Source: Bacteroidota bacterium | Lineage (GTDB): Bacteria > Bacteroidota > Bacteroidia > Bacteroidales > Paludibacteraceae | Direction: 5' to 3' | NCBI GenBank assembly: GCA_021779195.1 | Contig: JAJYBB010000014.1 | Coordinates: 19,061-83,060 of the forward strand | DNA length: 64,000 nucleotides | In this document: positions 32,760 through 50,254 of the stretch, piece by piece | Numbering within the stretch: the first letter of the stretch is position 1 | Layout of the letters: each line of letters begins with the position of its first letter | Program-made: the position numbers and the translations under genes | The notes under the pieces: model-generated | Seen by the model: only the letters and a program-made list of their open reading frames with translations | Told to the model about the DNA's origin: nothing | The model's database searches: none

Positions 32760-32814
32760 TATTTTTGTTGGTTTATTGGTTAAGTGATTGTTTGATAATT
32801 TATTGTTACTTATT

Positions 32815-33513: not shown

Positions 33514-33549
33514 TTTTTAACTGTTTATTGGTTAGTTAATTCCTAAAAT

Positions 33550-33756: not shown

Positions 33757-33767
33757 AATTTTGATTT

Positions 33768-34989: not shown

Positions 34990-35072
34990 TTTTTTGTAAA
35001 TTTAGTTGTTATTTGACATTATCTTTTTGTTTTTATAATGCTACTGATAAGTAGTATTATAAAACAAAAAAA

Positions 35073-35486
35073 TTAATATCTTAATATTTTATTAAAATCC
35101 ATATCTGATAATTTGGTTTCACGGAAAACTTTATTTAAATCAGTTCTTAGGTTCATCCACAAATAATGCATGGCACAAGGATTTGAAGATGAACAACTTT
35201 CAAAGCCTAATAAACAACCATTCAGTTTATCCATACCTTCAACTGAGTCAATTATATCGTACAACATTATTTCATCGGGGCCTTTAATAAAGGTGTAACC
35301 CCCATCCCTGCCTTGAATACTTCGGATAAATCCTGATTTCGACAAATCAGTCATTAAACGTCGCAAGTATTTATCCGAAACTTTTAATTCTTTCACAAGT
35401 TGTTTAGCTGTATATAATTGATCTGGCGATTGTGACATGTAAATTAAAATGCGTAAAGCATATTCGGAAGTTTTTGATAATTTCAT
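35073..35486 (-). CDS. Rrf2 family transcriptional regulator with an Fe-S ligand Cys triad (NsrR/IscR-like)
   Basis: 137 aa with an N-terminal wHTH (SEYALRILIYM...) and Cys91-X6-Cys98-X5-Cys104 (CLLGFESCSSSNPC), spaced as in cluster-binding Rrf2 proteins. Confidence 0.9.
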   Translation of the reverse strand: MKLSKTSEYALRILIYMSQSPDQLYTAKQLVKELKVSDKYLRRLMTDLSKSGFIRSIQGRDGGYTFIKGPDEIMLYDIIDSVEGMDKLNGCLLGFESCSSSNPCAMHYLWMNLRTDLNKVFRETKLSDMDFNKILRY

Positions 35487-35894: not shown

Positions 35895-35929
35895 GAAAGC
35901 TACTAGATAATTGATATCCAGTAGCTTTC
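35895..35929 (-). terminator. terminator hairpin after the 3235-aa gene
   Basis: Perfect 10-bp stem GAAAGCTACT / AGTAGCTTTC, 28 nt past the stop codon. The minus-strand trailer is T-rich. Confidence 0.55.
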
Positions 35930-35956: not shown

Positions 35957-38900
35957 TTATTTATTCATAATTATCAGTTTCGTCCATCCGACGAGTTTGG
36001 CATTGTTCATTCTTACATCTACCAAATATAATCCAGGAATAAGTTTCAGATTTCCAAGCTTATACTTTTCAGTTACCGCGTTATGATTTCGATAATCTAT
36101 GAAAACCAGCTGACCAGTACTGTTGTAAATTCGTATATTTAATGTCCCGGAAGTCGGTTCCTTAACATACAGTATAACATCTTTGTAAGAAGGATTTGGA
36201 TAAATACTGATATTATTCGAGTATCTTACTTTTAAGTCCAAATTCGTTTTGGTCAAAAAGACCGTTACTTCATCTGCCTGCGAATCGTCAACGCCATCGT
36301 TTACTACTAAGCTGAATGTGAGCTGATTAATACCTGAAGGAGCAACAAATGTGGGTTTGGCGTAATGAACATCATTCAGGGTTATTCCTTCTGGTGAAGT
36401 CCATTTGTAGGTAAGTTCATCATTATCTGCATCGAAAGATTCAGAACCATCTAACATGATTAAATCCTCGCCAGCCCCTATCTGATCTGGTCCAGCATTA
36501 GCCACCGGAGTAACGTTTCCTCTTAGTATCCACTGAGTCAGTGGAGACAAAGTTCCTGTCTTTCCACTCAGATATTTTTTCAATCCGGCTGTACTCACTG
36601 ATAGCGAGAAAGTTCCACCCGAAGCAACACCTACATTGCCGAAATTGCCAACTGTAAACTCGGTGTCACTATTTTTGTTGATAATCATTGAATTTACATT
36701 TGTTTCCATGCCGTTGAGTTTGCAAATCAGATTATTCTTCAACGCAGTTTCATTCAAAATCTTATCAGAGAAATTGAGTAAAATTGAAGCAGGATGCTTT
36801 CGTAGTGTACCTAAAGGAACATTGTTCCAGTTAGCCGTAAGAGGCATTTCGTCAATGTAAATAGGAAGTTCTGTCATTGATGTATTGCCAAGTGTATCAA
36901 CGGTTTCTGCCTGCAATTTCATGCTTCCTGAAGATGGAATTTTTACCGTTAAAGCCAATATACCGGTGCTGGCAGGCAAAGTATCGACTAGGAGCGTGGA
37001 AGTTTCGTAACTGTTATAATATAATCGGATACGAGCCTTGGGCGCATTCACCTTCATTGATACCTCCAATTGCGATGTCGAAGTAACTCCATCGTATGAC
37101 GAATATCCCAGATCTGGAGAAATTTTCATCTCTGTAACCGATGCCGGCACATTTCTGCTCACTGTCCACGTTTTTTGGAAAAAGCCAAAGGCTTTGTTCC
37201 CAGACAAATCGGTTACATTTGCCATATTTATTTTTAATACATAAACACCGTCGTTGTAAGTCAGCAATCTGAAATCAGTAATTAAATAAGTAGTATCGTT
37301 TAATATTCCATAATTCAGTTGCGAAACAGGTTGTTGTAATCCATCTTTCCACAGTTCAACAATCGAAATTCCGAATCCGGAAATCGGCTCACTGAATGTC
37401 AATTGAGCGGAAGTAATGTGTTGGTTATCATAACCACCAACGTTTTTCATGATAATTTTATTCAAAATAGGTCCATGAGTGTCAATTTTCCAGCTTACTT
37501 TTTGAGCTGAGAGACCGAAAATACCATTTTTAGATTTAATATTCGGTAAATCAACGGTTAGTTCATACGTTCCATCGGCAATCATAATGCTGTCTGTTTT
37601 CAAAATTTTAAAAAGTTTACCTTCAGTATCCATTCGCGAGATAGAAACCGGAGCAGTAACCACATTCCCTTCTCTGGTCCAAACAAGACGTGCAGGAGTA
37701 AAGGATGTGGTATCTACAGGCACGGTGAATCGAATCATTACATTATCCGAAATGACAGCAGTAGCGCTTCCGTCAACAGGTATCCCGATAAATTCACTCA
37801 CAGCGGGTGAATTAGTAAACTGAGACCACGAAATCTGTTTCGATAATTCACCTGCTTCGCCTGTCAGGTTGGTAATGCCAGTTGTTTGAATAGTAAGCAC
37901 ATAATATCCATCAGTAGTAGTTACAGATGACAAATTAATGCGGAATGTAACTGAATCAATCTGCGTAACGGTAACTGAGTTATTCATTAAATTGGAACCC
38001 CCTTGGCAACGTAAAATCATATCTTCGAATGTGAAGGATGATGCCTTAACCGGTTTTTCGAATACAACGTTGACTAATGAAATTTGTGAAGAAGAAACAC
38101 TTGAAGGAACATTTTCAAATTTCAGCACGGTGGGTGGATCGACCCTTTTAGGGACGAATTTAATTAAATACTTTGTTAACTGAATAGAATCAAATTCATC
38201 CACGAAATGTATTTTATGTTCGTATACAGGTTCTTTTCCATCGGGTAAAGTAACATGTGTCTGCCATACATTTCTTGCCGGAAGTGTTTTGCCATCGCGC
38301 TGGCGTGTTACATTTAATATTTCATATCGTCCCGCAGTAGGATCAGTTACTTTACCGTAATTCCAACCCATCAGTTTTGGAGAAACATCCAGTCCGATTT
38401 CGTAAACTGGCGAAGATAACGTTCCCGTGGTACAAATAGTATTAACTGCACTTACAGGCAACACATTGCCACTTGAAGTGTAAATTTCATCGGGAGTTTC
38501 ATCGGCATCCTGAACTTCATTTACTAAAAAGTCATGAATTGTATCCAAATCGTTATAAACGGATATACTGCGTATTAACTCGTGTAATTTGGCTCCACTA
38601 ATTAAACTAAGGTCGGGATTTCCATAACTATCGGCGTGAACAACGCGGGTTTCGTAATTCACAAAATGTCCAAGCAAGTCGGCTGTAAACCACCATTGAC
38701 CTATAGCCGTTGATTTTGAAGCTATATTTCCAAAATCAATATTGTTTAATCCGAGTTGACGATTTTGACCGTTCAGATTCGAACCGATTAGCGCCAGATG
38801 AATAGCCAGCCCTTTCTGATTTTCGATGATTTCTGGTTGTGCCGACTCCACGCGTACCTTGGTAGCTGCACCATATCCATTGTTTTGGATCATTAAAGCC

Positions 38901-41900
38901 AGTTCGGCTGGAACAATAGGTTCTATCGCTTCTGTAAGCGGATCATCGGCCAGAATATCGCGTTGCATAAAATAATGTAGGTACAAATCGGGACTCGGAT
39001 TTACATCAAGTGAAATCGGGAAGAGTTGTTTTGTGACTTCCATTCCGTTAAACGGATCGATATACGAGAATGAACCTCCAAATGAATAAGTGGTCGGTAC
39101 TGTTGGTGCAGCTCCTTTTTCGGGGATAAACAGAATAGAAGCACTACCCTTCTGTCCGGCAGCGAGCGACCCTGTACCGTCAATGCCGGTAAGTATGCTA
39201 AGTGCTTTGGTATTAATCTGAAACAAATCGTTACAAAGAACGCCCAGTGAATTTTTCACTTCCAGATTGAGTTTGATATTGGTCATTGCATTCTGGTTAT
39301 TCCCGTTTACAATGGTTAAAGTACCTTCAAAAGCTTCCCGTGTCATTACCAGTTTTTGTGAAATTTGCAGGGTAATTGATGCACAAACCGATTTTTTCCC
39401 TGTTTCAGTTTGTTCTTTCAGAGTATTATAAGCCGTATTTGCCATTTCGCGAATATTGGCATATCCTCTTCCTATGGCATAGGCAAGTGCAGAATCTTCC
39501 TGTAGAACATATTTTTTTAATAAATTATTGTTGATAATATCGGGGAAATCGTTAGTAGGTTCCTGAATATTTTGAGCTCGGGCTATCAGTGTTCTGTTCC
39601 ATCTGAGCGAAAATGCTTCCACTTCAACAGGCAAGATATCTGTTCCTGACAAATTCTGGTTTATTTTAATAATATCGAGCGGTTGTATTTCTTTTTTAAA
39701 TACAGTAAATGAATCAACTGCGTGTACAAAATCTACAAAGTTAACCCGTTTATACAAGGAGTCGATTCCGGTAATCTCATTCATCCAATTGTGCTCGGCA
39801 TCCATACTATGTCGTGCCCAAAGCAAATCGGTGTATGCCTGCTTAATAATAGGAGGCATTAAAGGTTTTGGTACCGTTGGATTAGTCTGATAAAGCTTTA
39901 ATTGTTTGACTAATAAGCGTGGAGGATCTTTATAGCAGCTGTACGCCGTTCCAAATAATCCGATCACACAACCCCATCCGGGTATAAATCCTAATCCGCA
40001 TTGGGCAGCATCAACCAATGTCGGTCCGTCATCATCGGTAAATGATTTAATGCACGCAACAACTCCCGATGCTGTTCCAATTGGGCCAGGGATGCACCCA
40101 AGCACCGCCAGTGTAAGTTCCATGGTACAATTGTCACATTCGAAAACATTGTTTACAGATACAGTAGAGCTGTTGTTTGAGGGAACAACGTATACATATC
40201 CGCCACCGCCACCACCTAAAGTAGGACTGCCACCACCCGGAGAATAGCCTCCGGTGGCAGATCCAGTGCAAATTCTCCCCGAAAATTTAAACAGTTGGAC
40301 GCCCTCGTGCCATTTTTTATCAGGGCCGCAATAGAATCCATGACTTTCAACCACTACATCGACGCAGTTTAAATCCGACGCAGTTGCTCGCAATATTGTG
40401 TTGACCGGATTAAATGAGGCTTTACGTTTCATAACCACCGGAATCTGAATAGATTGTTGTGCCAGCAAATCCATTTTTGTGAAATTGGTTACAAACTCAT
40501 ACTCCGGATCGTTGGGGAATTTAAGTGTAACATCAGTGGCTGTGATCAATCCTTTGTTTGTAATTGTAACAAAAAACGGATAGGTTTCATCATTTATCAG
40601 TTGTGGCATACTGTCGGGCATTGACATGACAACCACAGGAGCAGGAACATTTGTTTCGTATTTCATGATCAGATCCACTTTATATTCATCTTCCACTTCT
40701 GTACGAACAACTTCCCATGTATAACTGATCGCCTGAAAACTTATAAAGATGCTTTGCGACAGAGTTTTCCCTGCATCAATAATGATGTTGTTCCGATAAC
40801 CATCATGCTTTTCCGCTTCTACAGTCATGGAATAATATCCTTCAGGAATACTGTCCATCTTAAAGATCCCATTTGAATCCGTGAATCCATCTGCCACAAT
40901 CACTCCGCTATAAGGATGACGAACAAGAATATGCGCATTTTTTACAAGAGGGGCTTCGGTTGTATTGTAGGTATATTCATCCAATACATCTATACAAAGA
41001 CCACCCTTAGCATCGGAAACTGCTTCTAATTTATAAGGCATTGCAATTCCTTTTCCATGTTCACAGTTTATTGCTATCGACCCGTTTACAGGGGTGTTAA
41101 GTGCCAAGTCAGTATCAGTTAATTTTAATGTTACCGTTACGCTTTCAGAAGGTTTAATATTGGCAATCGAATCGGAACTAACCAGACTCATAAAACTGAC
41201 GGATGGAAGCAGGATTCTAACAATTCCACTTTCACCGGCACCTCGGTTAGTAAGCGTAAATTCGAGGTATTTGGTTGTTCCTTTTGAAACAGTCGTGCTG
41301 ATATTTGTTGGACCGGTTTCGAGTGAAGCCTGTTGTTCCTGACAGAAGTAGTAGACATCGTATCCGATAGTTACACCTTCATCACAACTGATGATCAGAT
41401 TTAATTTCTGATAATCAGACGTCATACTGCGTTTAGTACCTAAAACAGAATAATTGAGTGTAGCTGTGGCATTGGAGGGCAAAACTGCCAGAGGACTTGC
41501 CGTTAAAGTACATCCGTCGGGCAACGTTTTGATTTTCAGTTGAATGTTTTTCAGTTCAATATTACTTGTGTTTTTTATTTGAAGCGCTCCATTGAAAGGG
41601 TCTCCTACTTTCGTCAGCCAAGTAATATAATCTCCTGCAGTACGTTTTATTCCCAGAATATCGAAAGAATCTTGGACAGCGGTTAATCCTTCGTCGGGAT
41701 AGCAAGCGCCGATTTCGAAGTGTCCAGATTCGTCGGGTAATGGATTAAACTGAACTGTATAATTTCCGAGATTATCGGTTATTGAAGTCAATTTTTTCCT
41801 TGTCCCGTTGCAAAGCAGATAAACATCAATATTTACATTTGATGCCGGTTGCAGATTTGTTTTTATTGCTTTACCATAGATATTGATTGGCTTATTAGGC

Positions 41901-44900
41901 AATGTCTGGGTTAAATCTACAGTGGCAGTTGCGGTGTATTCCGGAACAATTTTAAAGTTTATGGGATCGTAAGTGTTGTTGGTATAGACTAGCTCGCTCA
42001 ATGCATTATTCGGATTTGCTTGTGCCAACAGGTTGTAATTACCTGTTTTTGAAGGTAAAGTCAGCGAAATGCTAAAAGGAACAGAATCGCCCATTAGAAT
42101 CTGATTTGTAGTAGCAAAAGTTTCCAATAACTGATCGCTGTTATCTACATAATTATCCTTGGATAAATAAAACCCTACTTTTGAGCCTGTTGGTGCATTC
42201 AGATATCCAAGATTTAATAATCGACCCGTTACCTGAACTATTTCACCGGTTAAAGCAGTAGTTTTATTTACTTCCATATGGTGAATTACTAAATCGGGTT
42301 TATTCAGATCGGTAACATAAGCGAAACAAAACCCCGAAACAAAGCCGGCTGCCTGAACTGTGATACTAACTGTTTGATTTCCATCTTCAATACCATCATT
42401 GATTGTGGTAATAGGGACTTCAACCGATTTTTGTCCAGCAGGAATCTGTACCGTTGACTGAACTTCAATTTCAGTTGGATCGTTAAACATGATGGTTACA
42501 TTCACGTTTCCTGAAGTTTCGGTATTTCGGGAAATAATTAGTTTTCCTGCATTGGTTTTTCCTTCAAAAAGCGATACAGGATTTACGATTGCTGTAAGGC
42601 ATGGTCCATCATTATCGGCAATAACCAAACTTTTAGTTATTACACCTCCGTTATCAGGAGACGAATTGCAATTGCAGGACTTTACCCATACCGAACCAGT
42701 GATTACCACTTTGCGGTAACCATCTACTTCTGCGTTATCCACAACGCCAATATTGAATTTTGCTTCATTTGTACCGCTCGGAAGTGTTATGGCGGATGGT
42801 ATAATTAAAGTATTTGGAACCGAAACTGTAAAATTGAGTGTGATATTTCCATCACCTTTTATTCTTTTGATGGATGCATAAGTAGCGTACATTCCTCCAG
42901 CCTCAGGAACCGTATCAGCAGTAAGGTTGAATTCCAGTTCTGGCATATCATCATCGTTGATAGTGGCTGTTGCGCTGCACGAAGAATATCCTCCGGAACT
43001 TATGGTTATTGAAGCTGTGCCGTTCAATTCGGGAGAATTATCATTTATCACAAAAATAGGAACAATCACAACTGAATCGTTTGCCTGGATTGTGGCTGCA
43101 TTATTAAAAATCCACTGATTGGGTTTATCGGTCGAAAGATAAACGGTGAGCGGTGAAGTGGTTATCAGATTTCGTGTAATTCTCAGTTTTAGCGAATCTC
43201 CCTCGTTTACAACCGTTTTATTTAGTACAGCTTTCAAAACAGTAGCTTCATTATCAAGTATTTGTATCATCGAAGTATCGCTTTTATACGAAGCTGCCGA
43301 TATCACTATTTTCACATTTCTTAAACCATCCACGATCGCATTATCGATTGCTTTTAAGTTAAATATTTCTGAAGACATATTTTCAGGAATAGTAACCGAA
43401 GCAGGAATGGTGATTTGACCCGCTGGGAGGTTGGTGATATTAACCGGAAGAGGTGTTGAATATTCACCGCTGCGTGCTATAACGCATCTTACTTCAGCAT
43501 CGGATCCTTCGGATAAGGAGGTAGTAGCAATATCAAGAAAAAGCACATCGACAGGAGTTACCGTACTAGAAGAAAGAGCCTTGTTGTTTGCATCGGTTCC
43601 GCTGTGTTCAATCAGTGTTCCGGAAGGGATGAGCACCACCTCAATATTTGCGGGTCCTGAAAATTTTAATATTTCCGGAATTTTAAACGTATACCTTCTG
43701 GTCAGTGTTTGTGCTACTGGTAAGTCGATACTGCTTGTCAAATGAGGGCTTAACGCCACCCTTCTTCCATTAGGAGAAATAAGAGTAACTCTTTCTGACC
43801 ATCCGCCTAACGCATTGGCATTGCCAATATTCTCAACCTTCCAGCTGATTTGCAACGAGTCGCCCGGTGTAAAAGTTGTTGTGGTAGTTTGAATATCTTT
43901 CACCTTTATATCTGGAAAGGGTTTGAGAGCCACTTTAACTGAGTCGGCAAACCGCAGCATGTTGTTGTCGTTGGATAATTCAGTCAACTCGTTATAAATA
44001 TCGGTTTTAGCAAACAGGTAATACTTTCCGGTATATTCAGCCGGCATGGTAATTATAAACGACTGTGTGTATGTTTCATTCACAGCCAATTGTCCTGAAT
44101 TATATTTTACCATCAGTTGAGTTTTTCCTCCGTTCGCAGCTGTGTCAGTCGAAATATACACTGCATCCTGCCATTGCCCGCTGATTGTAGAAGTTTGTCC
44201 TGTATTTTTAACAGTAAATGTTACAGTAAACTGACTACCCGATTCCACTTCTTTTGGAGCCTGTACATCCGTAATTTGAAGATCAGGTAGCGATTTGGTT
44301 GTAAACGTCTGAATGCTGCTTTCTGCAGACGAACATTCGTTAATTGATACAATTTTCCAGGAGTAAATTGTACCTGGTTTCAAATTGTACAACCGTTTGC
44401 TGGTTCCGTAAATATAAGGTTGAGTTGCGTTTGCAGGTATGGGTGCTCCTTCTTCCCAAAGAAAAAGGTTGTAATAACGACAATTCAGCGAAGGTTGCCA
44501 ATACAAATCGAGATAAGCTGAATTTAGATTTGCAGTTCCCGTTTCAGGTGTCATTCCCGTTGCTTTGGTGCAGGGTTTGCATTCTACTCCCACAGTACCC
44601 GAATACGTAATTGCGGTTAAATTTTCATTGCAGAGCACATTCTGGATGCTTACAGTATGCGTACCGCTGTTTAATGCTACCATTCCTATCCGGCACAAAA
44701 TCCCTGAACCGATCAAACCGCTTCCGGAAGCAAATGATATTTTAATAATCGATCCAGAAGCATTATTCTGTACCGAAATGGGATAATCAACCGCTTCAAT
44801 TTTAGATGTAACACCTGCCAAATTTGAATTAAATGTTAATTCAAAACTTCCTGAGTAAACGATTGTACCCGGTGCAATTTCAATTTTTACCGGCAGGTAA

Positions 44901-45664
44901 AAAGTATCCATTAATATAGCTCCACTGTTAACTACGCTTAGTTTTATTCCTCGAACATCGATCACACCGGTAGTGTAGTTTCTATTTCCTTTTGCATCGG
45001 TAACATAAATTTTGGTAGATCCAGGACCGGTTGCAGTAACTTTTCCATTTGCATCAACCGAAGCAATAGCCCCATTATCACTTCCGTAAGTAAAAGGTGG
45101 AGTGCCGCTTGATACATTCATTTGTACTGTTTCGCCTACATACAATTGCCTGCTGTCGGGGTAAATATCGGGAAATGGCAATGAAGTACTGTTGATATAT
45201 GCGGATTTAAGTGTCATGGCAGGACTTCCTTCATTCAACAGACTAAATGCAGAAATGTTATCAATAGTGGTATATCCGCTTCGTTTTGCAAAAAAGCGGA
45301 TGTACAATAAATTTCCATTCCCTATTAGCGGCTCTGCACCGGCAAGGGCAATATATAATCTTCCGGGCGTACCACTGTTGACCGTCGGAATTCCCCAACT
45401 TTTCATTGGTGTACCGACCGAATCAATTCCCAAAAATTCGACATAATTGGAATTGTAGCTTAACCCGAATTTGAATGCGTAAATATTTTTTCCGGTAAGG
45501 AGTGTATCAGCCTTAACCACCACTGTAAAGGTATCTTTTTCAGTTACTGTGTTGTTTAATATGCTGAATCCGACAGTTTGTGCAATTATTTTATCAACCG
45601 GAAAAAAATTGAAAATCAGCAGAAAAACAGAGGGTGCGATGGTAAATTTTATAAGTTTTTTCAT
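35957..45664 (-). CDS. giant (3235 aa) T9SS-secreted multidomain surface protein
   Basis: Signal peptide, then in order: cohesin-like, Big_2 (VGETVQMN...ASVDANGKVTATGPGSTKIYV), cohesin-like, FN3-like, CARDB x2-3 (PDLQITDV...VKNTG...ELSNDNN), Calx-beta-like x4, CarboxypepD_reg-like (NGIFKMDSIPEGYYSMTVEA), Gly/Cys-rich hydrophobic core, ~590 aa of unknown type, Ig-like repeats, PKD-like (ANAGPDQ...DGSESFDADND), T9SS CTD. Confidence 0.9.
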   Translation of the reverse strand: MKKLIKFTIAPSVFLLIFNFFPVDKIIAQTVGFSILNNTVTEKDTFTVVVKADTLLTGKNIYAFKFGLSYNSNYVEFLGIDSVGTPMKSWGIPTVNSGTPGRLYIALAGAEPLIGNGNLLYIRFFAKRSGYTTIDNISAFSLLNEGSPAMTLKSAYINSTSLPFPDIYPDSRQLYVGETVQMNVSSGTPPFTYGSDNGAIASVDANGKVTATGPGSTKIYVTDAKGNRNYTTGVIDVRGIKLSVVNSGAILMDTFYLPVKIEIAPGTIVYSGSFELTFNSNLAGVTSKIEAVDYPISVQNNASGSIIKISFASGSGLIGSGILCRIGMVALNSGTHTVSIQNVLCNENLTAITYSGTVGVECKPCTKATGMTPETGTANLNSAYLDLYWQPSLNCRYYNLFLWEEGAPIPANATQPYIYGTSKRLYNLKPGTIYSWKIVSINECSSAESSIQTFTTKSLPDLQITDVQAPKEVESGSQFTVTFTVKNTGQTSTISGQWQDAVYISTDTAANGGKTQLMVKYNSGQLAVNETYTQSFIITMPAEYTGKYYLFAKTDIYNELTELSNDNNMLRFADSVKVALKPFPDIKVKDIQTTTTTFTPGDSLQISWKVENIGNANALGGWSERVTLISPNGRRVALSPHLTSSIDLPVAQTLTRRYTFKIPEILKFSGPANIEVVLIPSGTLIEHSGTDANNKALSSSTVTPVDVLFLDIATTSLSEGSDAEVRCVIARSGEYSTPLPVNITNLPAGQITIPASVTIPENMSSEIFNLKAIDNAIVDGLRNVKIVISAASYKSDTSMIQILDNEATVLKAVLNKTVVNEGDSLKLRITRNLITTSPLTVYLSTDKPNQWIFNNAATIQANDSVVIVPIFVINDNSPELNGTASITISSGGYSSCSATATINDDDMPELEFNLTADTVPEAGGMYATYASIKRIKGDGNITLNFTVSVPNTLIIPSAITLPSGTNEAKFNIGVVDNAEVDGYRKVVITGSVWVKSCNCNSSPDNGGVITKSLVIADNDGPCLTAIVNPVSLFEGKTNAGKLIISRNTETSGNVNVTIMFNDPTEIEVQSTVQIPAGQKSVEVPITTINDGIEDGNQTVSITVQAAGFVSGFCFAYVTDLNKPDLVIHHMEVNKTTALTGEIVQVTGRLLNLGYLNAPTGSKVGFYLSKDNYVDNSDQLLETFATTNQILMGDSVPFSISLTLPSKTGNYNLLAQANPNNALSELVYTNNTYDPINFKIVPEYTATATVDLTQTLPNKPINIYGKAIKTNLQPASNVNIDVYLLCNGTRKKLTSITDNLGNYTVQFNPLPDESGHFEIGACYPDEGLTAVQDSFDILGIKRTAGDYITWLTKVGDPFNGALQIKNTSNIELKNIQLKIKTLPDGCTLTASPLAVLPSNATATLNYSVLGTKRSMTSDYQKLNLIISCDEGVTIGYDVYYFCQEQQASLETGPTNISTTVSKGTTKYLEFTLTNRGAGESGIVRILLPSVSFMSLVSSDSIANIKPSESVTVTLKLTDTDLALNTPVNGSIAINCEHGKGIAMPYKLEAVSDAKGGLCIDVLDEYTYNTTEAPLVKNAHILVRHPYSGVIVADGFTDSNGIFKMDSIPEGYYSMTVEAEKHDGYRNNIIIDAGKTLSQSIFISFQAISYTWEVVRTEVEDEYKVDLIMKYETNVPAPVVVMSMPDSMPQLINDETYPFFVTITNKGLITATDVTLKFPNDPEYEFVTNFTKMDLLAQQSIQIPVVMKRKASFNPVNTILRATASDLNCVDVVVESHGFYCGPDKKWHEGVQLFKFSGRICTGSATGGYSPGGGSPTLGGGGGGYVYVVPSNNSSTVSVNNVFECDNCTMELTLAVLGCIPGPIGTASGVVACIKSFTDDDGPTLVDAAQCGLGFIPGWGCVIGLFGTAYSCYKDPPRLLVKQLKLYQTNPTVPKPLMPPIIKQAYTDLLWARHSMDAEHNWMNEITGIDSLYKRVNFVDFVHAVDSFTVFKKEIQPLDIIKINQNLSGTDILPVEVEAFSLRWNRTLIARAQNIQEPTNDFPDIINNNLLKKYVLQEDSALAYAIGRGYANIREMANTAYNTLKEQTETGKKSVCASITLQISQKLVMTREAFEGTLTIVNGNNQNAMTNIKLNLEVKNSLGVLCNDLFQINTKALSILTGIDGTGSLAAGQKGSASILFIPEKGAAPTVPTTYSFGGSFSYIDPFNGMEVTKQLFPISLDVNPSPDLYLHYFMQRDILADDPLTEAIEPIVPAELALMIQNNGYGAATKVRVESAQPEIIENQKGLAIHLALIGSNLNGQNRQLGLNNIDFGNIASKSTAIGQWWFTADLLGHFVNYETRVVHADSYGNPDLSLISGAKLHELIRSISVYNDLDTIHDFLVNEVQDADETPDEIYTSSGNVLPVSAVNTICTTGTLSSPVYEIGLDVSPKLMGWNYGKVTDPTAGRYEILNVTRQRDGKTLPARNVWQTHVTLPDGKEPVYEHKIHFVDEFDSIQLTKYLIKFVPKRVDPPTVLKFENVPSSVSSSQISLVNVVFEKPVKASSFTFEDMILRCQGGSNLMNNSVTVTQIDSVTFRINLSSVTTTDGYYVLTIQTTGITNLTGEAGELSKQISWSQFTNSPAVSEFIGIPVDGSATAVISDNVMIRFTVPVDTTSFTPARLVWTREGNVVTAPVSISRMDTEGKLFKILKTDSIMIADGTYELTVDLPNIKSKNGIFGLSAQKVSWKIDTHGPILNKIIMKNVGGYDNQHITSAQLTFSEPISGFGISIVELWKDGLQQPVSQLNYGILNDTTYLITDFRLLTYNDGVYVLKINMANVTDLSGNKAFGFFQKTWTVSRNVPASVTEMKISPDLGYSSYDGVTSTSQLEVSMKVNAPKARIRLYYNSYETSTLLVDTLPASTGILALTVKIPSSGSMKLQAETVDTLGNTSMTELPIYIDEMPLTANWNNVPLGTLRKHPASILLNFSDKILNETALKNNLICKLNGMETNVNSMIINKNSDTEFTVGNFGNVGVASGGTFSLSVSTAGLKKYLSGKTGTLSPLTQWILRGNVTPVANAGPDQIGAGEDLIMLDGSESFDADNDELTYKWTSPEGITLNDVHYAKPTFVAPSGINQLTFSLVVNDGVDDSQADEVTVFLTKTNLDLKVRYSNNISIYPNPSYKDVILYVKEPTSGTLNIRIYNSTGQLVFIDYRNHNAVTEKYKLGNLKLIPGLYLVDVRMNNAKLVGWTKLIIMNK
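35960..36214 (-). other. T9SS C-terminal sorting domain (type A-like) of the 3235-aa protein
   Basis: Last ~85 aa NISIYPNPSYKDVILYV...GQLVF...LIPGLYLVDVRMNN...KLII, the classic Por_Secre_tail pattern. Confidence 0.8.
44585..44947 (-). other. cohesin-like module 2 of the 3235-aa protein (aa ~240-360)
   Basis: FYLPVKIEIAPGTIVYSGSFELTFNSNLAGV...ASGSIIKISFASGSGLIGSGILCRIGMVAL follows the cohesin strand pattern. Judged by eye only. Confidence 0.45.
45185..45577 (-). other. cohesin-like module 1 of the 3235-aa protein (aa ~30-160)
   Basis: FTVVVKADTLLTGKNIYAFKFGLSYNSNYVEFLGI...GRLYIALAGAEPLIGNGNLLYIRFFAKRSG matches the usual cohesin layout. Judged by eye only. Confidence 0.55.
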
Positions 45665-45739
45665 TGTCGTAAGTGTTGAGTTGTTGAAACTTGTAATTCT
45701 TCGCGGATCACTTTAAAACCCAGGTTGAAAATTATTTTC

Positions 45740-48700
45740 TTATTTCCGGTTAAGAACCATTTTTTCAGAAAAGTTTCTGCCATCAGCATTCATCCTAACA
45801 AGATAAACGCCATTCTGCAAATTACCCAAATCAGACAACGGAATTTGTAATATCTGTTTTCCTTCGCCAATTTTATTATAGTTGTAAATTCCTAATGTTC
45901 TGCCCGAAATATCAATAATATTGATATCCATTTTTTTAAGTTCTTTCTGAGCATAAAATTCAATATTCAACTTATTTACGCCAATCCAGATATTTATTAT
46001 CTTGTTGGCTTCAACCGGTGTGAGAAACGTAATAATTTTCGAAGTAATTGGTAATGTTGAATTGGTGAGCGTGAGTTGACTTTCATTGGCCATTGCTGAA
46101 GTTATACTGAATTCCGATTCGGCAATAGCAGCATCCACGAGTTTGAATGTCAGGTAAATGACACCATCTTCGAGCGATAAATCCTGAGCCGAAGCCATGG
46201 AAATAGCCAGGATACCATTATCGGTCAGTGTTGACTGTGCAAACGATATATCCTGATTCAGTTTTGAAGTTTGGATATTGATCAATTTGATGTGCTGCTG
46301 ATTGAAATTAAATTTCAAATCGAGCGATTTCACTCCGGCACCGGTATTTAGTGTGATTGGAATAATAAATTCTCCGTTGTCTGTTGCTGGCTGAACAGCT
46401 GTCAGAGTGATAGCGGTTTGAATGTTGGCTGGAGCAAGCTTCCGAATCATGCTCGGGTTGGGTGTAAATGTTGCAATCAAATTCACATTGTATTGTAAAA
46501 TCATGGAGGCATCGTACGATGTAATTGAACCGTTTTTGCTGACATCAGCTACATTTTGTTGAGCAGCATTAAGCACGATATTCGAAACGACATATTGCAA
46601 AATAAGCGATGCATCATACGGATTGATCGTTCCGTTCTGGCTCACATCGCCAAGTTCAGCTTTGGTAAGTTGTGATGTAAAAGGTGAGAATGCCACATAA
46701 TCCGATATCCGTTCGCCGGTTCCCGAAGGATTGGACGTGGCATTTTTAGGTCCTGTGGTAGCGTTATACCAACAATTGGTTGCTGTAACGGTGGTTGACG
46801 ATGATTTATTCCAAATGGCGTATCCATAGTTATCATCCACATCTATGAAATCGCAATCGGTAATTACGGGGAACGAAGAATTAGTGGCGATAATTCCGTG
46901 ATACCCTTTATCAAAACGACAATGCTGAATGGTAGGAGAAGCATTGTCTACTGTAACAGCTCCGCGTGAATCGGGATACGAAGCATATTTAATAATACAG
47001 TTTTTCAAAACACAATTTTCATCTACAGATTCATTATAAAAATAGATACCACGCCATGCATAATTCCAAGGCGCATTGGCATCGGCATTATTATAGGTAT
47101 CACCACCGTAAAAATCATCCCTGTCGGATGTAAAGACAATAGCGCTATCAGAGGTTCTTCCTCCTACGGCTATCAATCCGTTACTCACATTCAGGTAACC
47201 ATAATTCATAAATTTGGCAATGATACCCGGCTCAATTGTTAGTTTGGCCGAACTGCCAACCGTATAATAATTAAATACATATGGGATGTTGGTTATTCCT
47301 GCAAAATTATGCTTTTTCAATGTTGCATCTTGCGTAAGTGTCTCATCATTAACGCGAATAGCTCTGCCGGTGGATCCGGAAATTATATTCCCTGTGGTAG
47401 AGTGCGGATATGTAAGCAATGAAGTGTTAAATGGATAACTGATATTATTAAATGTACAGTTTTCGATAACTGGAGCACTCAATCCGACCAGAGAAATACC
47501 ACAATTTGGATAATTTTCAAATGTGCAATTTGTTATGATTGGTGATGCATTGTTTAACTGAATCGGAGTTGTGTTCGAATATCTGAAAATGGCATGATCA
47601 ATCGTACTTGAATCGTTGGCCGAATCGTAAAATACGAAAAAATTTCCATTGTTAGTTGGCGAAAGAGCTCCATCTTGCTGGCTGTCTTTTGGATTTCCGT
47701 AAAAATCATCCTCTACTGTTGTAAAGACAACTGGGTTTGTCGCTGTACCTTCAATATTTAACCTCCCTTTAATATTCCATCGTCCTCGACCTTTAAATGT
47801 TAATCCTGCAGGAATTGTCAACTGATCTGTTACAGTCAATGCATCATCGTACCATAAATAAGTGATTGGATTATATCCGGCAAAACTACGTGCCGGAACC
47901 GTTCCGTTTACATTTCCCGGTCGAAGTTTTATAGCAATATCGGCTACATTGGATAATTTATTCGTTCCGGTAAAGGTTGGATTTGCAAACATATCCATGT
48001 AAATTGGTTCCCAAGCGATATTGCTAAATTCACAGTCTTTAATTTCGGGATCGGCATTCCCAAATATTGCCAATCCACATTGATTCGTAAAATTGATTTT
48101 TACTGAATCGAGCAATACATGACAATCGGTGATCTGAATCGGACAATCGATGTTCCAGCCTCCACCACAATATCTGATCTCACAGTTTCGCATTATATTT
48201 TCTGTATCGCTTGCCGAACCGGTAAAATTAAATCCATACCAGTCATAGTTATTGGGAATCGTTGATGTGGTATTGTTGTTGGTATCTCCGCCGACTGAAT
48301 CGTCATTAATGGATGTGAAAATAATTTTTTCCGTTTTTGTTCCAATCGCTTTTAGGGCGCCATTAATAATCCAATTCTGACCGAACCGATTTGATTTAAT
48401 AATGATTCCTGGATTGATAGTCAATGTGTTACCGTTTTCAATCGTTATACTATGTGTTAGAATATAAGGTAAATTTGTATATCCTGCAAAGTCCATCTTC
48501 TTCAAAGTTGGCGAATCGGTTTCTACACCATCTAATTGAATGCCTGTAAATCCGACATTGGTTAATGTGTTTCCCTGAATATTGGGTGATCCGTTGCTTA
48601 AAATATATCCAATCGGATATTGGGCGATGTTTATGAAACTATTATTTGTTATTTGTGCATTTTTAGTAAACCATATGGCATTGTACGAATTTTTTATCTC

Positions 48701-50254
48701 GCATTTATTAACTATATTACTATTCTTCAAATAGATAGCCCAATTACTCGAGTAGTTTCCTGCATAATTAAATTTCCAATTTTCAATTTTCGAGAGGGTT
48801 GTACTATAGAGACAAATTCTACCTCCCGCACTTGTTGCCGGAGCTTGGGTTCCATCGTTTTGTGAATCGGCAGGATTTCCGTACGTGTCGTCGGCGATAT
48901 GCGTGAAGATGATGGGTTCAGTCGTTGTCCCAATTCCAGTCAGGGTACCGTTTGCCGTGATCATCGAATAACCATCCCTGCATTTTATTACCACACCTGG
49001 ATCAATAACCAATGAAGCAGTATCATGCACAATTGTATTGTCATACAGACAATAAGATATATTGTTTAGTCCTATAAATGAAATTTTTTTCAGATGTCCT
49101 TCATTCACAATGGTTGTTCCGCGGAGTCTAATCGCCTTAAGTTCACGGTCGTTAAATTGTATGGAATCATTCGTAAAGGTAGGATTTGCATTCATATCCA
49201 TTGTTAAATTATAGGCTTCCCCATTTACAACGGTTGAAGGACCGAATACGCAATTTGATATAAGAGGATTACTTGTTCCCTCAATGTGTAGATTCCATGC
49301 ATTTCCGGTAAATCGGCAGCTATCAATGATGGGTGAAGCATTTGTGGTTCTTAGTGCAGCATACCATTCATAATCGTATGAAGCATTTTTCAGAACACAA
49401 TTTTTCATGATACAGGCTGAATCAATCGAACCATCGTAAAATCGGATTCCTCTCCAATAGCTTCCTTTAGAATATTTGTCAAAAATGATGGGATTGGCTT
49501 TGGTTCCTAATGCCTTGACTTTTCCTTCGTAAACTTCAATATCAGTTCCATTCATCTGTAAATTGACTCCCGGATCCATAATCAGGGTTGCATTTGCATT
49601 GACATCAATGTTATTGTCATTAAAGTATGGATAGCCAAAATTCTTCAAGTGAAACTCCTGACTAATTCTTTCAAAATCTATATCTATATAATTATATGTG
49701 TTATCCGTAAATACCAAATTTTTTCCTGGATTTACTACACCTGCGCCATAAAATTGGATGGGAAAATCGGAATTTGATATTTGAGTGCTGTCGATATTCA
49801 GCGTGCCCAAATAGCTGATGCGTACTGAACCGCTGAGATTATTCACTGCACATTTGTGTAGAGTCATTTGTCCTTTTCTGACGTAAAGGTTGGAAGCATA
49901 TTCCACCGTACAATTGTTTAGATTTACATTTCCCACTTCATAATATTCGTACGAAACGTAAATGCCATCCCAGAATCCTTTCGTTACTCCGGCATTGCCA
50001 GTAAAAGTAACTCCATTTGCATTTAAAGTACCCCTTACATGCAGGTATCGTCCGGAATTGAATTTGACAATTACTCCTGGTTCAACAGTCAGAGTTACCC
50101 CTGCGTTCACTTCAATACTGTTTACGATCACATACGGACTATTTGCAACTGTCCAGATCGTGTTTGAAGTTACCGATCCTGTAATGTCAGTTGCTTTTGC
50201 ACCTGTTATGAATATAATAAGGGCAAAAATTGAAAGTAATAAATTTTTTTTCAT
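45740..50254 (-). CDS. 1504-aa T9SS-secreted protein: six right-handed beta-helix modules, then dockerin-like, cohesin-like and CTD
   Basis: Signal peptide MKKNLLLSIFALIIFITGAKA; repeated NC.I.Y/NAS PbH1-like turns; tail as in the sub-features. It lies 75 bp upstream of the 3235-aa gene on the same strand. Confidence 0.9.
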   Translation of the reverse strand: MKKNLLLSIFALIIFITGAKATDITGSVTSNTIWTVANSPYVIVNSIEVNAGVTLTVEPGVIVKFNSGRYLHVRGTLNANGVTFTGNAGVTKGFWDGIYVSYEYYEVGNVNLNNCTVEYASNLYVRKGQMTLHKCAVNNLSGSVRISYLGTLNIDSTQISNSDFPIQFYGAGVVNPGKNLVFTDNTYNYIDIDFERISQEFHLKNFGYPYFNDNNIDVNANATLIMDPGVNLQMNGTDIEVYEGKVKALGTKANPIIFDKYSKGSYWRGIRFYDGSIDSACIMKNCVLKNASYDYEWYAALRTTNASPIIDSCRFTGNAWNLHIEGTSNPLISNCVFGPSTVVNGEAYNLTMDMNANPTFTNDSIQFNDRELKAIRLRGTTIVNEGHLKKISFIGLNNISYCLYDNTIVHDTASLVIDPGVVIKCRDGYSMITANGTLTGIGTTTEPIIFTHIADDTYGNPADSQNDGTQAPATSAGGRICLYSTTLSKIENWKFNYAGNYSSNWAIYLKNSNIVNKCEIKNSYNAIWFTKNAQITNNSFINIAQYPIGYILSNGSPNIQGNTLTNVGFTGIQLDGVETDSPTLKKMDFAGYTNLPYILTHSITIENGNTLTINPGIIIKSNRFGQNWIINGALKAIGTKTEKIIFTSINDDSVGGDTNNNTTSTIPNNYDWYGFNFTGSASDTENIMRNCEIRYCGGGWNIDCPIQITDCHVLLDSVKINFTNQCGLAIFGNADPEIKDCEFSNIAWEPIYMDMFANPTFTGTNKLSNVADIAIKLRPGNVNGTVPARSFAGYNPITYLWYDDALTVTDQLTIPAGLTFKGRGRWNIKGRLNIEGTATNPVVFTTVEDDFYGNPKDSQQDGALSPTNNGNFFVFYDSANDSSTIDHAIFRYSNTTPIQLNNASPIITNCTFENYPNCGISLVGLSAPVIENCTFNNISYPFNTSLLTYPHSTTGNIISGSTGRAIRVNDETLTQDATLKKHNFAGITNIPYVFNYYTVGSSAKLTIEPGIIAKFMNYGYLNVSNGLIAVGGRTSDSAIVFTSDRDDFYGGDTYNNADANAPWNYAWRGIYFYNESVDENCVLKNCIIKYASYPDSRGAVTVDNASPTIQHCRFDKGYHGIIATNSSFPVITDCDFIDVDDNYGYAIWNKSSSTTVTATNCWYNATTGPKNATSNPSGTGERISDYVAFSPFTSQLTKAELGDVSQNGTINPYDASLILQYVVSNIVLNAAQQNVADVSKNGSITSYDASMILQYNVNLIATFTPNPSMIRKLAPANIQTAITLTAVQPATDNGEFIIPITLNTGAGVKSLDLKFNFNQQHIKLINIQTSKLNQDISFAQSTLTDNGILAISMASAQDLSLEDGVIYLTFKLVDAAIAESEFSITSAMANESQLTLTNSTLPITSKIITFLTPVEANKIINIWIGVNKLNIEFYAQKELKKMDINIIDISGRTLGIYNYNKIGEGKQILQIPLSDLGNLQNGVYLVRMNADGRNFSEKMVLNRK
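45743..45991 (-). other. T9SS C-terminal sorting domain of the 1504-aa protein
   Basis: Last ~80 aa ...INIIDISGRTLGIY...ILQIPLSDLGNLQNGVYLVRMNADGRNFSEKMVL, a typical CTD beta-sandwich pattern. Confidence 0.65.
46049..46426 (-). other. cohesin-like module of the 1504-aa protein
   Basis: EFIIPITLNTGAGVKSLDLKFNFNQQHIKLINI...NGILAISMASAQDLSLEDGVIYLTFKL. Judged by eye only. Confidence 0.5.
46478..46663 (-). other. dockerin-like duplicated Ca-binding segment (aa ~1198-1259)
   Basis: GDVSQNGTINPYDASLILQYVV ... ADVSKNGSITSYDASMILQYNV: two EF-hand-like loops, each followed by a helix, spaced as in type I dockerins. Confidence 0.65.

Follow-up and report, generated by a model that had tools for sequence, protein, structure and literature searches.

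The window, which is the whole 64,000-nucleotide stretch analysed and comes from a Paludibacter-like bacterium, carries on its minus strand gene A, encoding the protein P1, and directly after it a gene encoding P2, which is a fusion of two genes (B and C) that stand apart in other loci (Table 1). The initial annotation had described two co-directional open reading frames with a short hairpin-free gap between them, and the coordinates as well as the gap were confirmed. P1 and P2 share a reading frame, and the spacer holds one extra in-frame stop codon beyond the stop of P1 itself. A terminator-like hairpin and a TAnnTTTG motif were searched in this gap and neither was found. The gap of 75 bp, its freedom from hairpins and the hairpin beginning 28 nt past the P2 stop point to an operon structure. 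Upstream of the pair, in divergent orientation, is a gene for a six-hairpin glycosidase.

Table 1. Features of the P1/P2 locus (positions are those of the window; aa, residues of the respective protein)
Feature	Positions	Strand	Evidence
Gene A (P1), 1504 aa: signal peptide, beta-helix repeats, dockerin, cohesin, T9SS CTD	45740..50254	-	ORF and Pfam
P1 passenger, aa 22-1190, right-handed beta-helix repeats	46685..50191	-	Pfam Beta_helix, three stretches
P1 dockerin, aa 1201-1259, two 22-residue segments, DVSQNGTINPYDASLILQY and DVSKNGSITSYDASMILQY	46478..46654	-	Dockerin_1
P1 cohesin (CohA), aa ~1275-1412	46019..46432	-	Pfam Cohesin, AlphaFold2 beta-sandwich, Foldseek
P1 T9SS type A C-terminal sorting domain, aa 1427-1504	45743..45976	-	PF18962 and TIGR04183
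P1/P2 intergenic spacer	45665..45739	-	75 bp, without terminator-like hairpin
Gene B/C fusion (P2), 3235 aa	35957..45664	-	ORF; alignment to B and C of three-gene loci
P2 cohesin 1, aa ~29-164	45173..45580	-	Pfam Cohesin 26.7 bits, family HMM 180 bits
P2 Big_2 Ig-like spacer, aa 170-228	44981..45157	-	Pfam Big_2 31-36 bits
P2 cohesin 2, aa ~238-365	44570..44953	-	Pfam Cohesin 22.7 bits alone, family HMM 145 bits
P2 passenger inherited from gene C	36515..44569	-	Profile scans
P2 K319L-like PKD domain, aa 3057-3136	36257..36496	-	32.3 bits, segment scanned alone
P2 T9SS type A C-terminal sorting domain, aa 3154-3232	35969..36205	-	PF18962, TIGR04183
Terminator-like hairpin, 15-bp stem	35895..35929	-	Starts 28 nt past P2 stop

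A signal peptide and a T9SS-type C-terminal segment had been ascribed to both proteins, and both features were recovered. The N-termini of P1 and P2 resemble Sec signal peptides when judged by eye (MKKNLLLSIFALIIFITGAKA; MKKLIKFTIAPSVFLLIFNFFPVDKIIA), and both C-termini exceed the Por_Secre_tail cut-offs of PF18962 (27 bits) and TIGR04183 (23 bits), with 29.0 and 26.1 bits in P1 and 33.9-39.4 and 31.2 bits in P2, respectively. The passenger of P1 scores 72 bits with Beta_helix and contains four Asp-rich motifs, IIFT..DDxYGNPxDSQxDG or DDxxGGDTNN, which start at aa 448, 644, 842 and 1039 with a period of ~197 aa and whose residues are nearly invariant in alignments of 41 and 78 sequences. P1 has 216 homologs and, among the 120 matches listed, most are full-length proteins of ~1500 aa. 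A PDB relative of this passenger was sought by sequence and none was found.

The P1/P2 pair carries one genuine dockerin and three genuine cohesins. The duplicated segment of P1, earlier read as the paired calcium loops of a dockerin, is matched by the Dockerin_1 profile at aa 1201-1255 with 36.6 bits (cut-off 22.9) and is modelled by AlphaFold2 as a helical bundle with pLDDT >90. Its loop residues D1, S3, N5 and D12 of segment 1 and D12 of segment 2 are invariant in 78 homologs. No other module of the pair is nearly as conserved as the dockerin, whose mean pairwise identity is 65% as against 25-37% for the cohesins, 38% for Big_2 and 24% for the CTD, and which is also far more conserved than its flanks; positions 11, 17 and 18, which make the cohesin contacts in type I complexes, are among the conserved ones. 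A second dockerin was sought in all other ORFs of the window and of the compared loci, and none was found.

Pfam Cohesin (PF00963, cut-off 24.1 bits) gave no match in whole-protein scans of P1 and P2, and the matches arise when the modules are scanned singly, with 25.6 bits for P1 aa ~1268-1415, 26.7 bits for P2 aa 28-164 and 22.7 bits for P2 aa ~234-370, the last being slightly under the cut-off on its own. A scan of P2 aa 1-400 yielded Cohesin at 36.4 bits over two stretches together with Big_2 at 36.2 bits, in agreement with the earlier view that P2 opens with two cohesins split by a Big_2 domain. The HMM of CohA also matches P2 cohesin 1 (45 bits), and in distant B proteins the N-terminal Coh-Big2-Coh region scores 35-66 bits, module 2 being the best stretch. 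The cohesin-like module claimed right after the P1 dockerin is borne out by its Pfam score and by its AlphaFold2 model (pLDDT 87-88), for nearly all of the best 50 PDB matches to the dockerin-plus-cohesin model are cohesin modules. Foldseek matched CohA to 2vo8 (TM 0.69, E 7e-8), 5nrk_A (0.67), 2ccl_A (0.64) and 2xdh (0.61), and 2w1n was the best match of the first AlphaFold2 model. CohA is the least conserved of the cohesins (25% vs 35-37% for those of B).

P2 aa 1-365 aligns with B aa 1-366 of the three-gene loci, and from aa 362 onwards P2 aligns with C from aa 158-170. By these alignments P2 is the first ~362 residues of B fused onto a third giant gene, C, with the junction to the C body at ~aa 362-366, at the end of cohesin 2. 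The initial annotation had missed both this origin of P2 from two ancestral genes and the three cohesins of the ancestral scaffold protein. Such a fusion is found in the Paludibacter clade, and the joining of the B cohesin head onto C argues that the cohesins are functionally linked to the C body. Along the P2 passenger lie CARDB domains (aa 460-570 and ~1122-1232), four ~100-aa repeats (aa ~700-1105), CarboxypepD_reg (aa 1574-1638), a Cys-rich domain (aa ~1795-1960), a conserved module (aa ~2090-2500) and Big_5 repeats (aa ~2510-2720), along with weak FN3 (17.5 bits vs a cut-off of 25). Among the passenger folds proposed earlier, Beta_helix, CARDB and PKD (as the K319L-like domain) therefore stand and FN3 is weak, whereas Calx-beta, considered for the four ~100-aa repeats, found no support, with no match even at E<=10. 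Profiles of glycoside hydrolases, lyases and CBMs had no match in P1 or P2, in line with the earlier statement that the passengers are not glycoside hydrolases.

The gene pair was followed through 89 loci, comprising the window and 88 fetched ones, with named homologs from Bacteroidota, Calditrichaeota and "Chlorobi". An A gene (beta-helix, dockerin, cohesin, CTD) is directly followed by a B gene (cohesin, Big_2, cohesin start) in 80 of the 89; the remaining nine are cut off at the end of A, so the pair is present in 80/80 testable loci. The gap from the A stop to the B ORF ranges from -90 to +300 nt, the genes flanking the pair differ in each locus examined, and the pairing is kept even in loci whose A gene shares no more than 27-33% identity with the window in its C-terminal cassette. 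Exactly one dockerin and one cohesin occur in all 86 A-type ORFs which match both models (one additional ORF, cut at a contig end, shows the dockerin only). B ORFs carry three cohesins in 57 cases and four in 3, and the unfused B proteins carry three. The shortest B proteins (618-660 aa) consist of a signal peptide, three cohesins, Big_2-like spacers and a CTD and nothing else, which argues that the conserved role of B resides in its cohesins. Across the loci the cohesins and the dockerin form the conserved core and the passenger regions vary, and this core together with the minimal B speaks for two components coupled in function and against a pair of unrelated adhesins. Profile matches exist and the synteny could hardly be stronger, and the two-component surface structure of the initial annotation is partly supported, its coupling by the conserved modules, the synteny and the minimal B.

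In P1 the long beta-helix region has at its base the single dockerin, with one cohesin beside it, and the two N-terminal cohesins of P2 are far in sequence from its sorting domain. We give slightly better than even odds to the reading that P1 and P2 are two products of one conserved T9SS cargo operon in which the P1 dockerin binds a P2 cohesin as a surface complex. Sec would export both proteins and the T9SS would take them through the outer membrane to the cell surface, where they are probably tethered and probably fit together. The Ca-loaded dockerin would bind a P2 cohesin like a dockerin subunit on a scaffoldin, and a P2 could take up as many as two P1, an unfused B in the relatives as many as three. 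CohA would pack on the dockerin as a rigid unit and may either stabilise it, like the X-module of type II dockerins, or offer an extra docking site for the chaining of P1. In the fused form the geometry looks awkward, as C-terminal tethers would place the P1 dockerin near the membrane and the P2 cohesins ~2,800 residues from their anchor.

The AlphaFold2 models bear on which cohesin is the partner. For dockerin and CohA together (236 aa) the pTM is 0.83, as against ~0.5 expected by our arithmetic if the two were placed independently, and it drops to 0.64 with the CTD added, as for a rigid body with a free CTD. The dockerin is thus confidently placed against its own cohesin, which suggests a rigid unit of the two, and it could be occupied in cis by CohA. 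The pairing might then be confined to P1, its dockerin binding a P1-type cohesin in cis (closed, self-capped) or head-to-tail (dimers or filaments), with the cohesins of P2 or B either recruiting dockerin proteins from genes at other sites of the genome or having no partner at all. The short connector of conserved length (5-11 residues in 82 of 86 A proteins) and the one dockerin and one cohesin kept in each A protein also favour this, and Archaeoglobus fulgidus AF2375, with a cohesin and a dockerin in a single chain, is a precedent. We nevertheless consider it unlikely, as it leaves unexplained the cohesin-only gene after A in every testable locus and the lack of any second dockerin gene nearby; moreover, CohA is the least conserved cohesin while the dockerin is so highly conserved, and the predicted packing may not involve the canonical binding face. 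In mirror-tree and mutual information analyses of 60 non-redundant pairs, no cohesin did better than the controls, Big_2 and the CTD.

Many polysaccharide lyases and GH28 enzymes fold as right-handed beta-helices, and the passenger of P1 might accordingly be a lyase, hydrolase or epimerase displayed for the breakdown of polymers, as in a minimal cellulosome, on a scaffoldin with a T9SS anchor. Precomputed NosD-type matches (PF05048) in paralogs, the glycosidase gene upstream in the window and the Cloacimonadota case, in which a T9SS-CTD cohesin scaffoldin with dockerin-bearing enzymes was inferred (PMC8542988), speak for such a display. It is improbable all the same, because no enzyme or CBM profile matches either protein, the glycosidase gene is not kept at other loci, each operon has a single dockerin protein and no enzyme set, and the P1 passenger lacks a PDB relative by sequence. 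Many non-cellulosomal dockerin- and cohesin-like modules are without a demonstrated partner, according to Peer et al. 2009 as cited in PMC6487960 and PMC13487519. With this and the modest Pfam scores in the window in mind, the dockerin might be a Ca-stabilised structural element and the genes co-expressed adhesins not touching each other, the cohesin-like sandwiches serving as Ig-like spacers or binders of external ligands. We hold this to be quite unlikely too, since the make-up of one dockerin and three to four cohesins is strictly kept across phyla while no other part of B and C escapes variation or loss, dockerin conservation (positions 11, 17 and 18 included) is far above that of the flanks, and the minimal B offers cohesins alone. 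For the favoured P1:P2 complex, the passengers are non-enzymatic by every tested profile, so a structural or adhesive surface assembly is most likely, not a cellulosome.

Compared with known systems, the pair would be a T9SS-anchored, non-cellulosomal cohesin-dockerin system. The cellulosomes of Clostridia (C. thermocellum CipA, with type I cohesins) share with it the Pfam Cohesin and Dockerin_1 families, the fold of the P1 cohesin, with TM values of 0.5-0.67 against type I and II cohesins, and the placing of a multi-cohesin protein beside a dockerin-bearing one; adaptor scaffoldins such as ScaA, like P1, have both module types. On the other hand, P1 and P2 lack glycoside hydrolases and CBMs, are probably anchored by a T9SS CTD, in a Gram-negative bacterium, and not by SLH or sortase, and have one dockerin protein per operon instead of dozens, its dockerin and cohesin being directly adjacent with a fixed short connector. 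The best structural matches to the P1 cohesin are the non-cellulosomal cohesin-dockerin pairs of Clostridium perfringens glycoside hydrolases (GH84C/GH33; 2w1n, 2vo8, 2jh2), where the modules join large secreted proteins and do not build a cellulosome; their carriers, however, are enzymes of a Gram-positive pathogen, without T9SS, beta-helix passenger or conserved two-gene operon. In Archaeoglobus fulgidus, cohesin and dockerin also lie in one non-cellulosomal polypeptide, with 2xdh as its cohesin, but this is a single archaeal protein without T9SS or a companion multi-cohesin gene. The X-module-dockerin units of type II likewise set a beta-sandwich beside a dockerin, as in the predicted rigid body of P1, whereas in P1 the sandwich follows the dockerin on its C-terminal side and is, by both profile and fold, a cohesin in its own right. 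In the Cloacimonadota 'Ca. Stygibacter' a cohesin protein with a conserved CTD was proposed in silico, as here, to reside on the cell surface, where dockerin proteins would be recruited to it (PMC8542988). That scaffoldin has 3,755 aa and tandem cohesins with CBM2/CBM3, and the dockerins are on several enzymes (GH18, GH57, peptidases) (PMC8542988), whereas the present system has a fixed A-to-B gene pair with one dockerin protein that is non-enzymatic by the profiles.

The T9SS cargo gene pair of this window has a conserved core, the constant features of which are one dockerin and several cohesins. The first gene (type A) codes for P1, a beta-helix protein in which the dockerin is followed by one cohesin (CohA), and the second codes for P2, which opens with cohesins. 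The ORF search has returned both minus-strand genes at exactly the positions and sizes of the initial annotation. Their spacer was confirmed to be 75 bp long and, by pattern scan, to contain no terminator-like hairpin, and no Bacteroidetes-type TAnnTTTG motif was found in it. This is consistent with P1 and P2 being placed on a single transcript, judging from the sequence. P1 and P2 also share a reading frame, with the P1 stop and one more in-frame stop lying in between.

Positions of the features in the window and in the homologous loci
Feature	Sequence	Position	Strand	Basis
P1 ORF, 1504 aa	window	45740..50254	-	ORF search
P2 ORF, 3235 aa	window	35957..45664	-	ORF search
Hairpin, 15-bp stem, 28 nt past P2 stop	window	35929..35895		pattern scan
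Region between P1 and P2 with the in-frame stops	window	45665..45742		
Four Asp-rich motifs, P1 aa 448-1065	window	47060..48913		
Fusion junction, P2 aa ~362-366	window	44567..44581		
Gly-rich and hydrophobic region, P2 aa ~1795-1960	window	39785..40282		
Widespread central module, P2 aa ~2090-2500	window	38165..39397		
Gene cluster downstream of P2	window	31530..35486		
282-aa cohesin gene between A and B	L060	10998..11843		
282-aa cohesin gene between A and B	L061	5846..6688		
282-aa cohesin gene between A and B	L062	10998..11843		
Four-cohesin B-like gene and 437-aa single-cohesin gene, upstream of A	L074	84..5043		

The genes flanking the pair have no evident link to it. A six-hairpin glycosidase gene lies divergently upstream. 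The cluster downstream of P2 looks like an iron or nitrosative-stress unit, with genes for an Rrf2 regulator, a cupin and three hemerythrin-domain proteins, of which one is ScdA-like and one of the DUF438/PAS type. The remainder of the window is ordinary chromosome, and none of PorK/L/M/N, Sov and PorU/V was found among the window ORFs scanned.

The dockerin with paired calcium loops, proposed earlier for P1, is well supported. Dockerin_1 (PF00404) matches P1 aa 1201-1255 with 36.6 bits against a curated cut-off of 22.9. A type I dockerin consists of two tandem segments of ~22 residues, each with a 12-residue Ca-binding loop (ligand positions 1, 3, 5, 9 and 12) and then a helix; two such loop-helix segments, DVSQNGTINPYD and DVSKNGSITSYD, are present in P1 at a spacing of 34 residues, and AlphaFold2 has modelled their helices at pLDDT >90. 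Position 3 of the loop is Ser and not Asn or Asp. In a 78-sequence alignment of the A C-terminal fragment covering both paralog classes of A, almost all invariant columns fall in the dockerin, namely D12 and L in both segments and, in segment 1, also G, D1, S3 and N5; at least 90% of the homologs retain D1 in segment 2. Further, Tyr11, Leu17 and Gln18 are near-constant in both segments among 60 non-redundant A/B pairs; positions 11, 17 and 18 are known to contact the cohesin in type I complexes. Over the same pairs, the mean pairwise identity is 65% for the dockerin, 38% for Big_2, 37% and 35% for B cohesins 1 and 2 (CohB1 and CohB2), 25% for the A cohesin and 24% for the A CTD (T9SS type A C-terminal sorting domain). 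Such a pattern would be expected of a binding module under selection. No further dockerin was found in any other ORF of the 64-kb window or of any locus surveyed.

The cohesins have been more difficult to detect. Whole-protein hmmscan of P1 and P2 gave no Cohesin (PF00963) match at E<=0.1, and the matches emerge only from scans of 140-400-aa segments; automatic annotation of such long repetitive giants may under-call cohesins. Scanned alone, P1 aa ~1268-1415 scored 25.6 bits, P2 aa 28-164 26.7 bits and P2 aa ~234-370 22.7 bits, the last being just under the curated cut-off of 24.1 bits. P2 aa 1-400 taken as one segment scored 36.4 bits across two stretches, with Big_2 present, so that the reading of P2 as opening with two cohesins around a Big_2 domain holds. 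The AlphaFold2 model of P1 aa 1185-1504 (41 sequences, mean pLDDT 87.1) shows the dockerin as a bundle of helices, a sandwich of nine strands and, for the CTD, another sandwich. For the P1 module, the nine-stranded beta-sandwich that characterizes the cohesin fold was modelled at pLDDT >90. Cohesins were among the Foldseek matches of the aa 1185-1504 model, and for a dockerin-plus-cohesin model the top 50 PDB matches were nearly all cohesin modules (2vo8, TM 0.69; 5nrk_A, 0.67; 2ccl_A, 0.64; 2xdh, 0.61). Profile and fold together bear out the cohesin-like module predicted after the P1 dockerin. The three cohesin modules are homologous, because ortholog HMMs cross-match between the P1 cohesin and both P2 cohesins (13.5-45 bits). 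No other ORF of the 64-kb window carries a cohesin, and phmmer of P2 cohesin 1 against PDB sequences gave nothing useful. By module family and fold, P1 and P2 are a cohesin-dockerin system.

Both proteins also carry export signals, as the initial annotation had stated. The T9SS-type C-termini score above cut-off with TIGR04183 and Por_Secre_tail PF18962 (26.1 and 29.0 bits in P1; 31.2 and 33.9 bits in P2), and by inspection both N-termini look like Sec signal peptides, with basic residues in the n-region, a core of hydrophobic residues and a motif of the cleavage type (AKA/IIA). Among the other modules, Pfam detects Beta_helix (72 bits) in P1, and two copies of CARDB (80 bits), CarboxypepD_reg, Big_2 and a K319L-like PKD domain in P2. 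Two labels were not sustained. The four ~100-aa repeats of P2 aa ~700-1105, named Calx-beta, gave zero profile matches at E<=10, and the FN3 label in P2 reached 17.5 bits only. In P1, four Asp-rich motifs with a period of ~197 aa close each beta-helix unit; IIFT..DDxYGNPxDSQxDG alternates with DDxxGGDTNN, both are nearly invariant across the family, and they may be calcium sites.

The P2 region of aa ~1795-1960 consists of a Gly-rich low-complexity stretch and then hydrophobic, transmembrane-like segments. A transmembrane or pore-forming nature was considered and rejected on account of eight cysteines conserved in 20 homologs (RxC, CDxC, GC and others), and the region is probably a disulfide-rich domain. 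P2 aa 1700-2500 matches 2,576 clusters of 1.84 billion representatives (1,746 at E<=1e-30), the core of the matches being aa ~2090-2500. This module is carried mostly by proteins of 2,000-7,500 aa; the shorter of them possess a T9SS CTD, and one possesses Peptidase_C10. No Pfam family covers the module, and it is without a solved relative. Against the PDB, a profile of the central module matched CTDs only, and phmmer of the P2 centre gave nothing useful.

Conservation of the gene pair in relatives, a check proposed with the initial annotation, has been borne out. P1 has 216 homologs, of which 120 are listed, nearly all of 1495-1517 aa, with identities down to 42% among those listed and with the names Paludibacter, Prolixibacteraceae, Saccharicrinis and Bacteroidales; the closest genome locus, a Paludibacter MAG, has the same two-gene layout. 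Judging by the homolog names, the host is a Paludibacter-like member of the Bacteroidales. The N-terminal 370 aa of P2 as query retrieved nine proteins only, and synteny was therefore taken from DNA loci. A metagenome scan with the dockerin-cohesin-CTD alignment gave 497 relatives, from which 80 loci were kept, and 88 fetched loci together with the window (89) were surveyed by BLASTP and family HMMs. Gene A is followed immediately by a plus-strand ORF beginning with a homolog of P2 aa 1-365 in 80 of the 89 loci, at -90 to +300 nt from the A stop, and the remaining nine end at or just past gene A. The flanking genes were different at every locus examined. The pairing holds even where the A C-terminal cassette is only 27-33% identical to that of the window and A is ~1750-2100 aa long. 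In these distant pairs Dockerin_1 scores 24-39 bits, while Cohesin reaches 29-44 bits in A proteins and, in the Coh-Big2-Coh region of B, 35-66 bits, so that the Cohesin scores are stronger than in the window. The names in the distant class are Paludibacter, Bacteroidota, Salinivirgaceae, Symbiothrix, Calditrichaeota and "Chlorobi" MAGs.

Every one of the 86 A-type ORFs that match both models carries a single dockerin and a single cohesin, and one further A ORF, cut by the contig end, has the dockerin only. The unfused ORFs of the cohesin gene (type B) code for three cohesins in 57 cases and four in three, at fixed positions of about aa 25-165, 235-370 and 445-575, and no dockerin was found in B proteins of the loci surveyed. 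Besides their three cohesins, the shortest B proteins (618-660 aa) have only a signal peptide, Big_2-like spacers and Por_Secre_tail. Since this census is constant and the minimal B holds little else, the dockerin and the cohesins are the invariant content of the system; everything besides cohesins varies in B and in the third giant gene, C.

Additional cohesin genes were also seen at some loci. The 282-aa protein encoded between A and B at three of them consists of one cohesin (Pfam, 30.6 bits) between a signal peptide and a T9SS CTD, in which it resembles single-cohesin anchoring proteins. In another locus, a second four-cohesin B-like gene and a 437-aa single-cohesin gene precede A, so that in some genomes a single dockerin protein is surrounded by several cohesin proteins. 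Two paralog classes have been recognized: in one, a ~1500-aa A goes with fused B/C, and in the other, A has ~1900 aa and B is minimal (~660 aa). Paludibacter-named MAGs hold both (L066, homolog P0130, compared with the window). The dockerins of both classes are near-identical at the presumed contact positions, which raises the question of cross-talk of the two operons, if both occur in one genome.

Comparison with the relatives indicates that P2 is a gene fusion. Where A is at most 53% identical to P1 (L004-L007, L021, L024 and others), three genes are arranged as A, B and C. In these loci B (~1320-1430 aa) combines three cohesins with PKD, REJ and DUF5018 regions and has a CTD of its own, and C is ~3000-4100 aa long, starting with its own ~150-aa N-terminal domain without a Pfam match, then FN3, CARDB and further domains. 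P2 aa 1-365 aligns with B aa 1-366, and P2 from aa 362 aligns with C from aa 158-170; going by these alignments, P2 is a B head of ~362 aa joined to a C body. The third cohesin, tail and CTD of B and the signal peptide and N-terminal domain of C have been lost, and a single in-frame deletion would yield the 3235-aa P2. The window and all loci with A at least ~63% identical to P1 have the fused form. The fusion provides an argument of the Rosetta-stone type that the B cohesin head and the C body act together.

In the mechanism we propose, the dockerin of A would bind the B cohesins, which in the window would be the two at the P2 N-terminus, and this binding would yield a surface complex in which CohA either stabilises the dockerin or extends the assembly. 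We lean, by a modest degree, towards this reading. The fused form makes its geometry awkward: if both C-termini were tethered, the P1 dockerin would be near the membrane and the P2 cohesins ~2,800 residues from their anchor, so that the complex would need partner release, fold-back or cell-cell contact. That A and B do not bind each other at all is very unlikely in our judgement. As to the partner of the dockerin, mirror-tree and partial correlations of domain distance matrices over the 60 non-redundant A/B pairs set no cohesin apart from the Big_2 and CTD controls (values for the dockerin: CohA 0.17, CohB1 0.15, Big_2 control 0.15, CohB2 0.0), and APC-corrected mutual information between the dockerin columns and five other domains was not enriched for cohesins over controls, the sequences being too few and the dockerin too conserved. 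An enzyme display system, in which the P1 beta-helix would be a carbohydrate-active enzyme, is as improbable as the absence of binding between A and B. The beta-helix region has no relative by sequence among PDB entries (phmmer), P1 has no match to GH, PL or CE profiles, and no CAZyme profile matches P1 or P2, in agreement with the earlier statement that the passengers are not glycoside hydrolases.

Pairing of A only with itself is rather unlikely. AlphaFold2 gave pTM 0.83 for dockerin plus CohA (236 aa, 78 sequences) and 0.64 when the CTD was included (320 aa). Independent placement of domains of 62 and 125 residues would give a pTM of roughly 0.5, and a value of 0.83 would need low inter-domain error; moreover, scaling 0.83 by 236/320 and adding a small contribution of a free CTD would lead to ~0.64. 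From this arithmetic AlphaFold2 seems to treat dockerin and CohA as one rigid body, and a contact between them is hinted at indirectly. In 82 of 86 A proteins a connector of 5-11 residues separates their HMM footprints, a constancy which fits a fixed arrangement. Such a unit could represent cis capping of the dockerin, an X-module-like buttress which leaves the binding face free, or a signal really stemming from trans contacts between A molecules. Cohesins bind dockerins through the 8-3-6-5 sheet, and Foldseek, being a single-chain comparison, is blind to the geometry of the complex. A bolder reading, which we regard as quite unlikely, is that the T9SS-anchored three-cohesin protein nucleates head-to-tail chains of beta-helix proteins, forming fibres or a coat without polysaccharide breakdown. 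Each A would then be a rigid dockerin-cohesin joint, attached by its dockerin to the unit before it and offering its cohesin to the one that follows. The fibres or coat would be non-covalent structures of Gram-negative bacteria, made with the glue of cellulosomes, and the A/B pair would be a surface-assembly system of Bacteroidota, Calditrichota and Ignavibacteriota that has not been described before. Overall, the observation behind the initial annotation has been confirmed and its interpretation as a surface scaffold of P1 and P2 is partly supported.

Cohesins and dockerins are familiar above all from the cellulosomes of Gram-positive bacteria, which their pairing glues together, and to our knowledge most of the catalogued non-cellulosomal cohesin and dockerin modules lack a known partner or purpose. 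The present system makes the partner question tractable, as its operon encodes a fixed complement, one dockerin to three or four cohesins, which is predicted to leave the cell through the T9SS. This complement is shared by genomes ranging from Bacteroidales to Calditrichaeota and "Chlorobi" MAGs, and the minimal versions hold almost nothing else. If the binding is true, it would offer a small, defined Gram-negative cohesin-dockerin system for study and engineering, the first case of T9SS cargo built for mutual assembly after secretion, and functional access to the many beta-helix proteins of ~1,500-1,900 aa which form a large family now named by domains only. A full-text literature search found no description of the A/B(/C) operon, which is not proof of novelty.

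In comparison with the known systems, the likeness to a cellulosome lies in the scaffoldin, which has at least two cohesins; P2 has two and unfused B three or four. On the other hand, the sole dockerin here is on a beta-helix protein without a GH, PL or CE match, and no CBM family is among the Pfam matches of P2 or the B proteins. The cellulosome reading is rejected, because there is neither a dockerin-bearing CAZyme nor a scaffoldin CBM. Dockerins of Bacteroidetes have been noted in rumen metagenomes (PMC6487960), and non-cellulosomal modules are described as occurring mostly on non-catalytic proteins (PMC13487519). The nearest structural relatives of the P1 cohesin in the Foldseek comparison are the non-cellulosomal modules of C. 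perfringens. For Cloacimonadota, a scaffoldin that unites cohesins with a T9SS CTD was inferred before (PMC8542988); it shares this type of CTD with the proteins studied here, whereas its CBMs and several dockerin-bearing enzymes distinguish it from the A/B pair.
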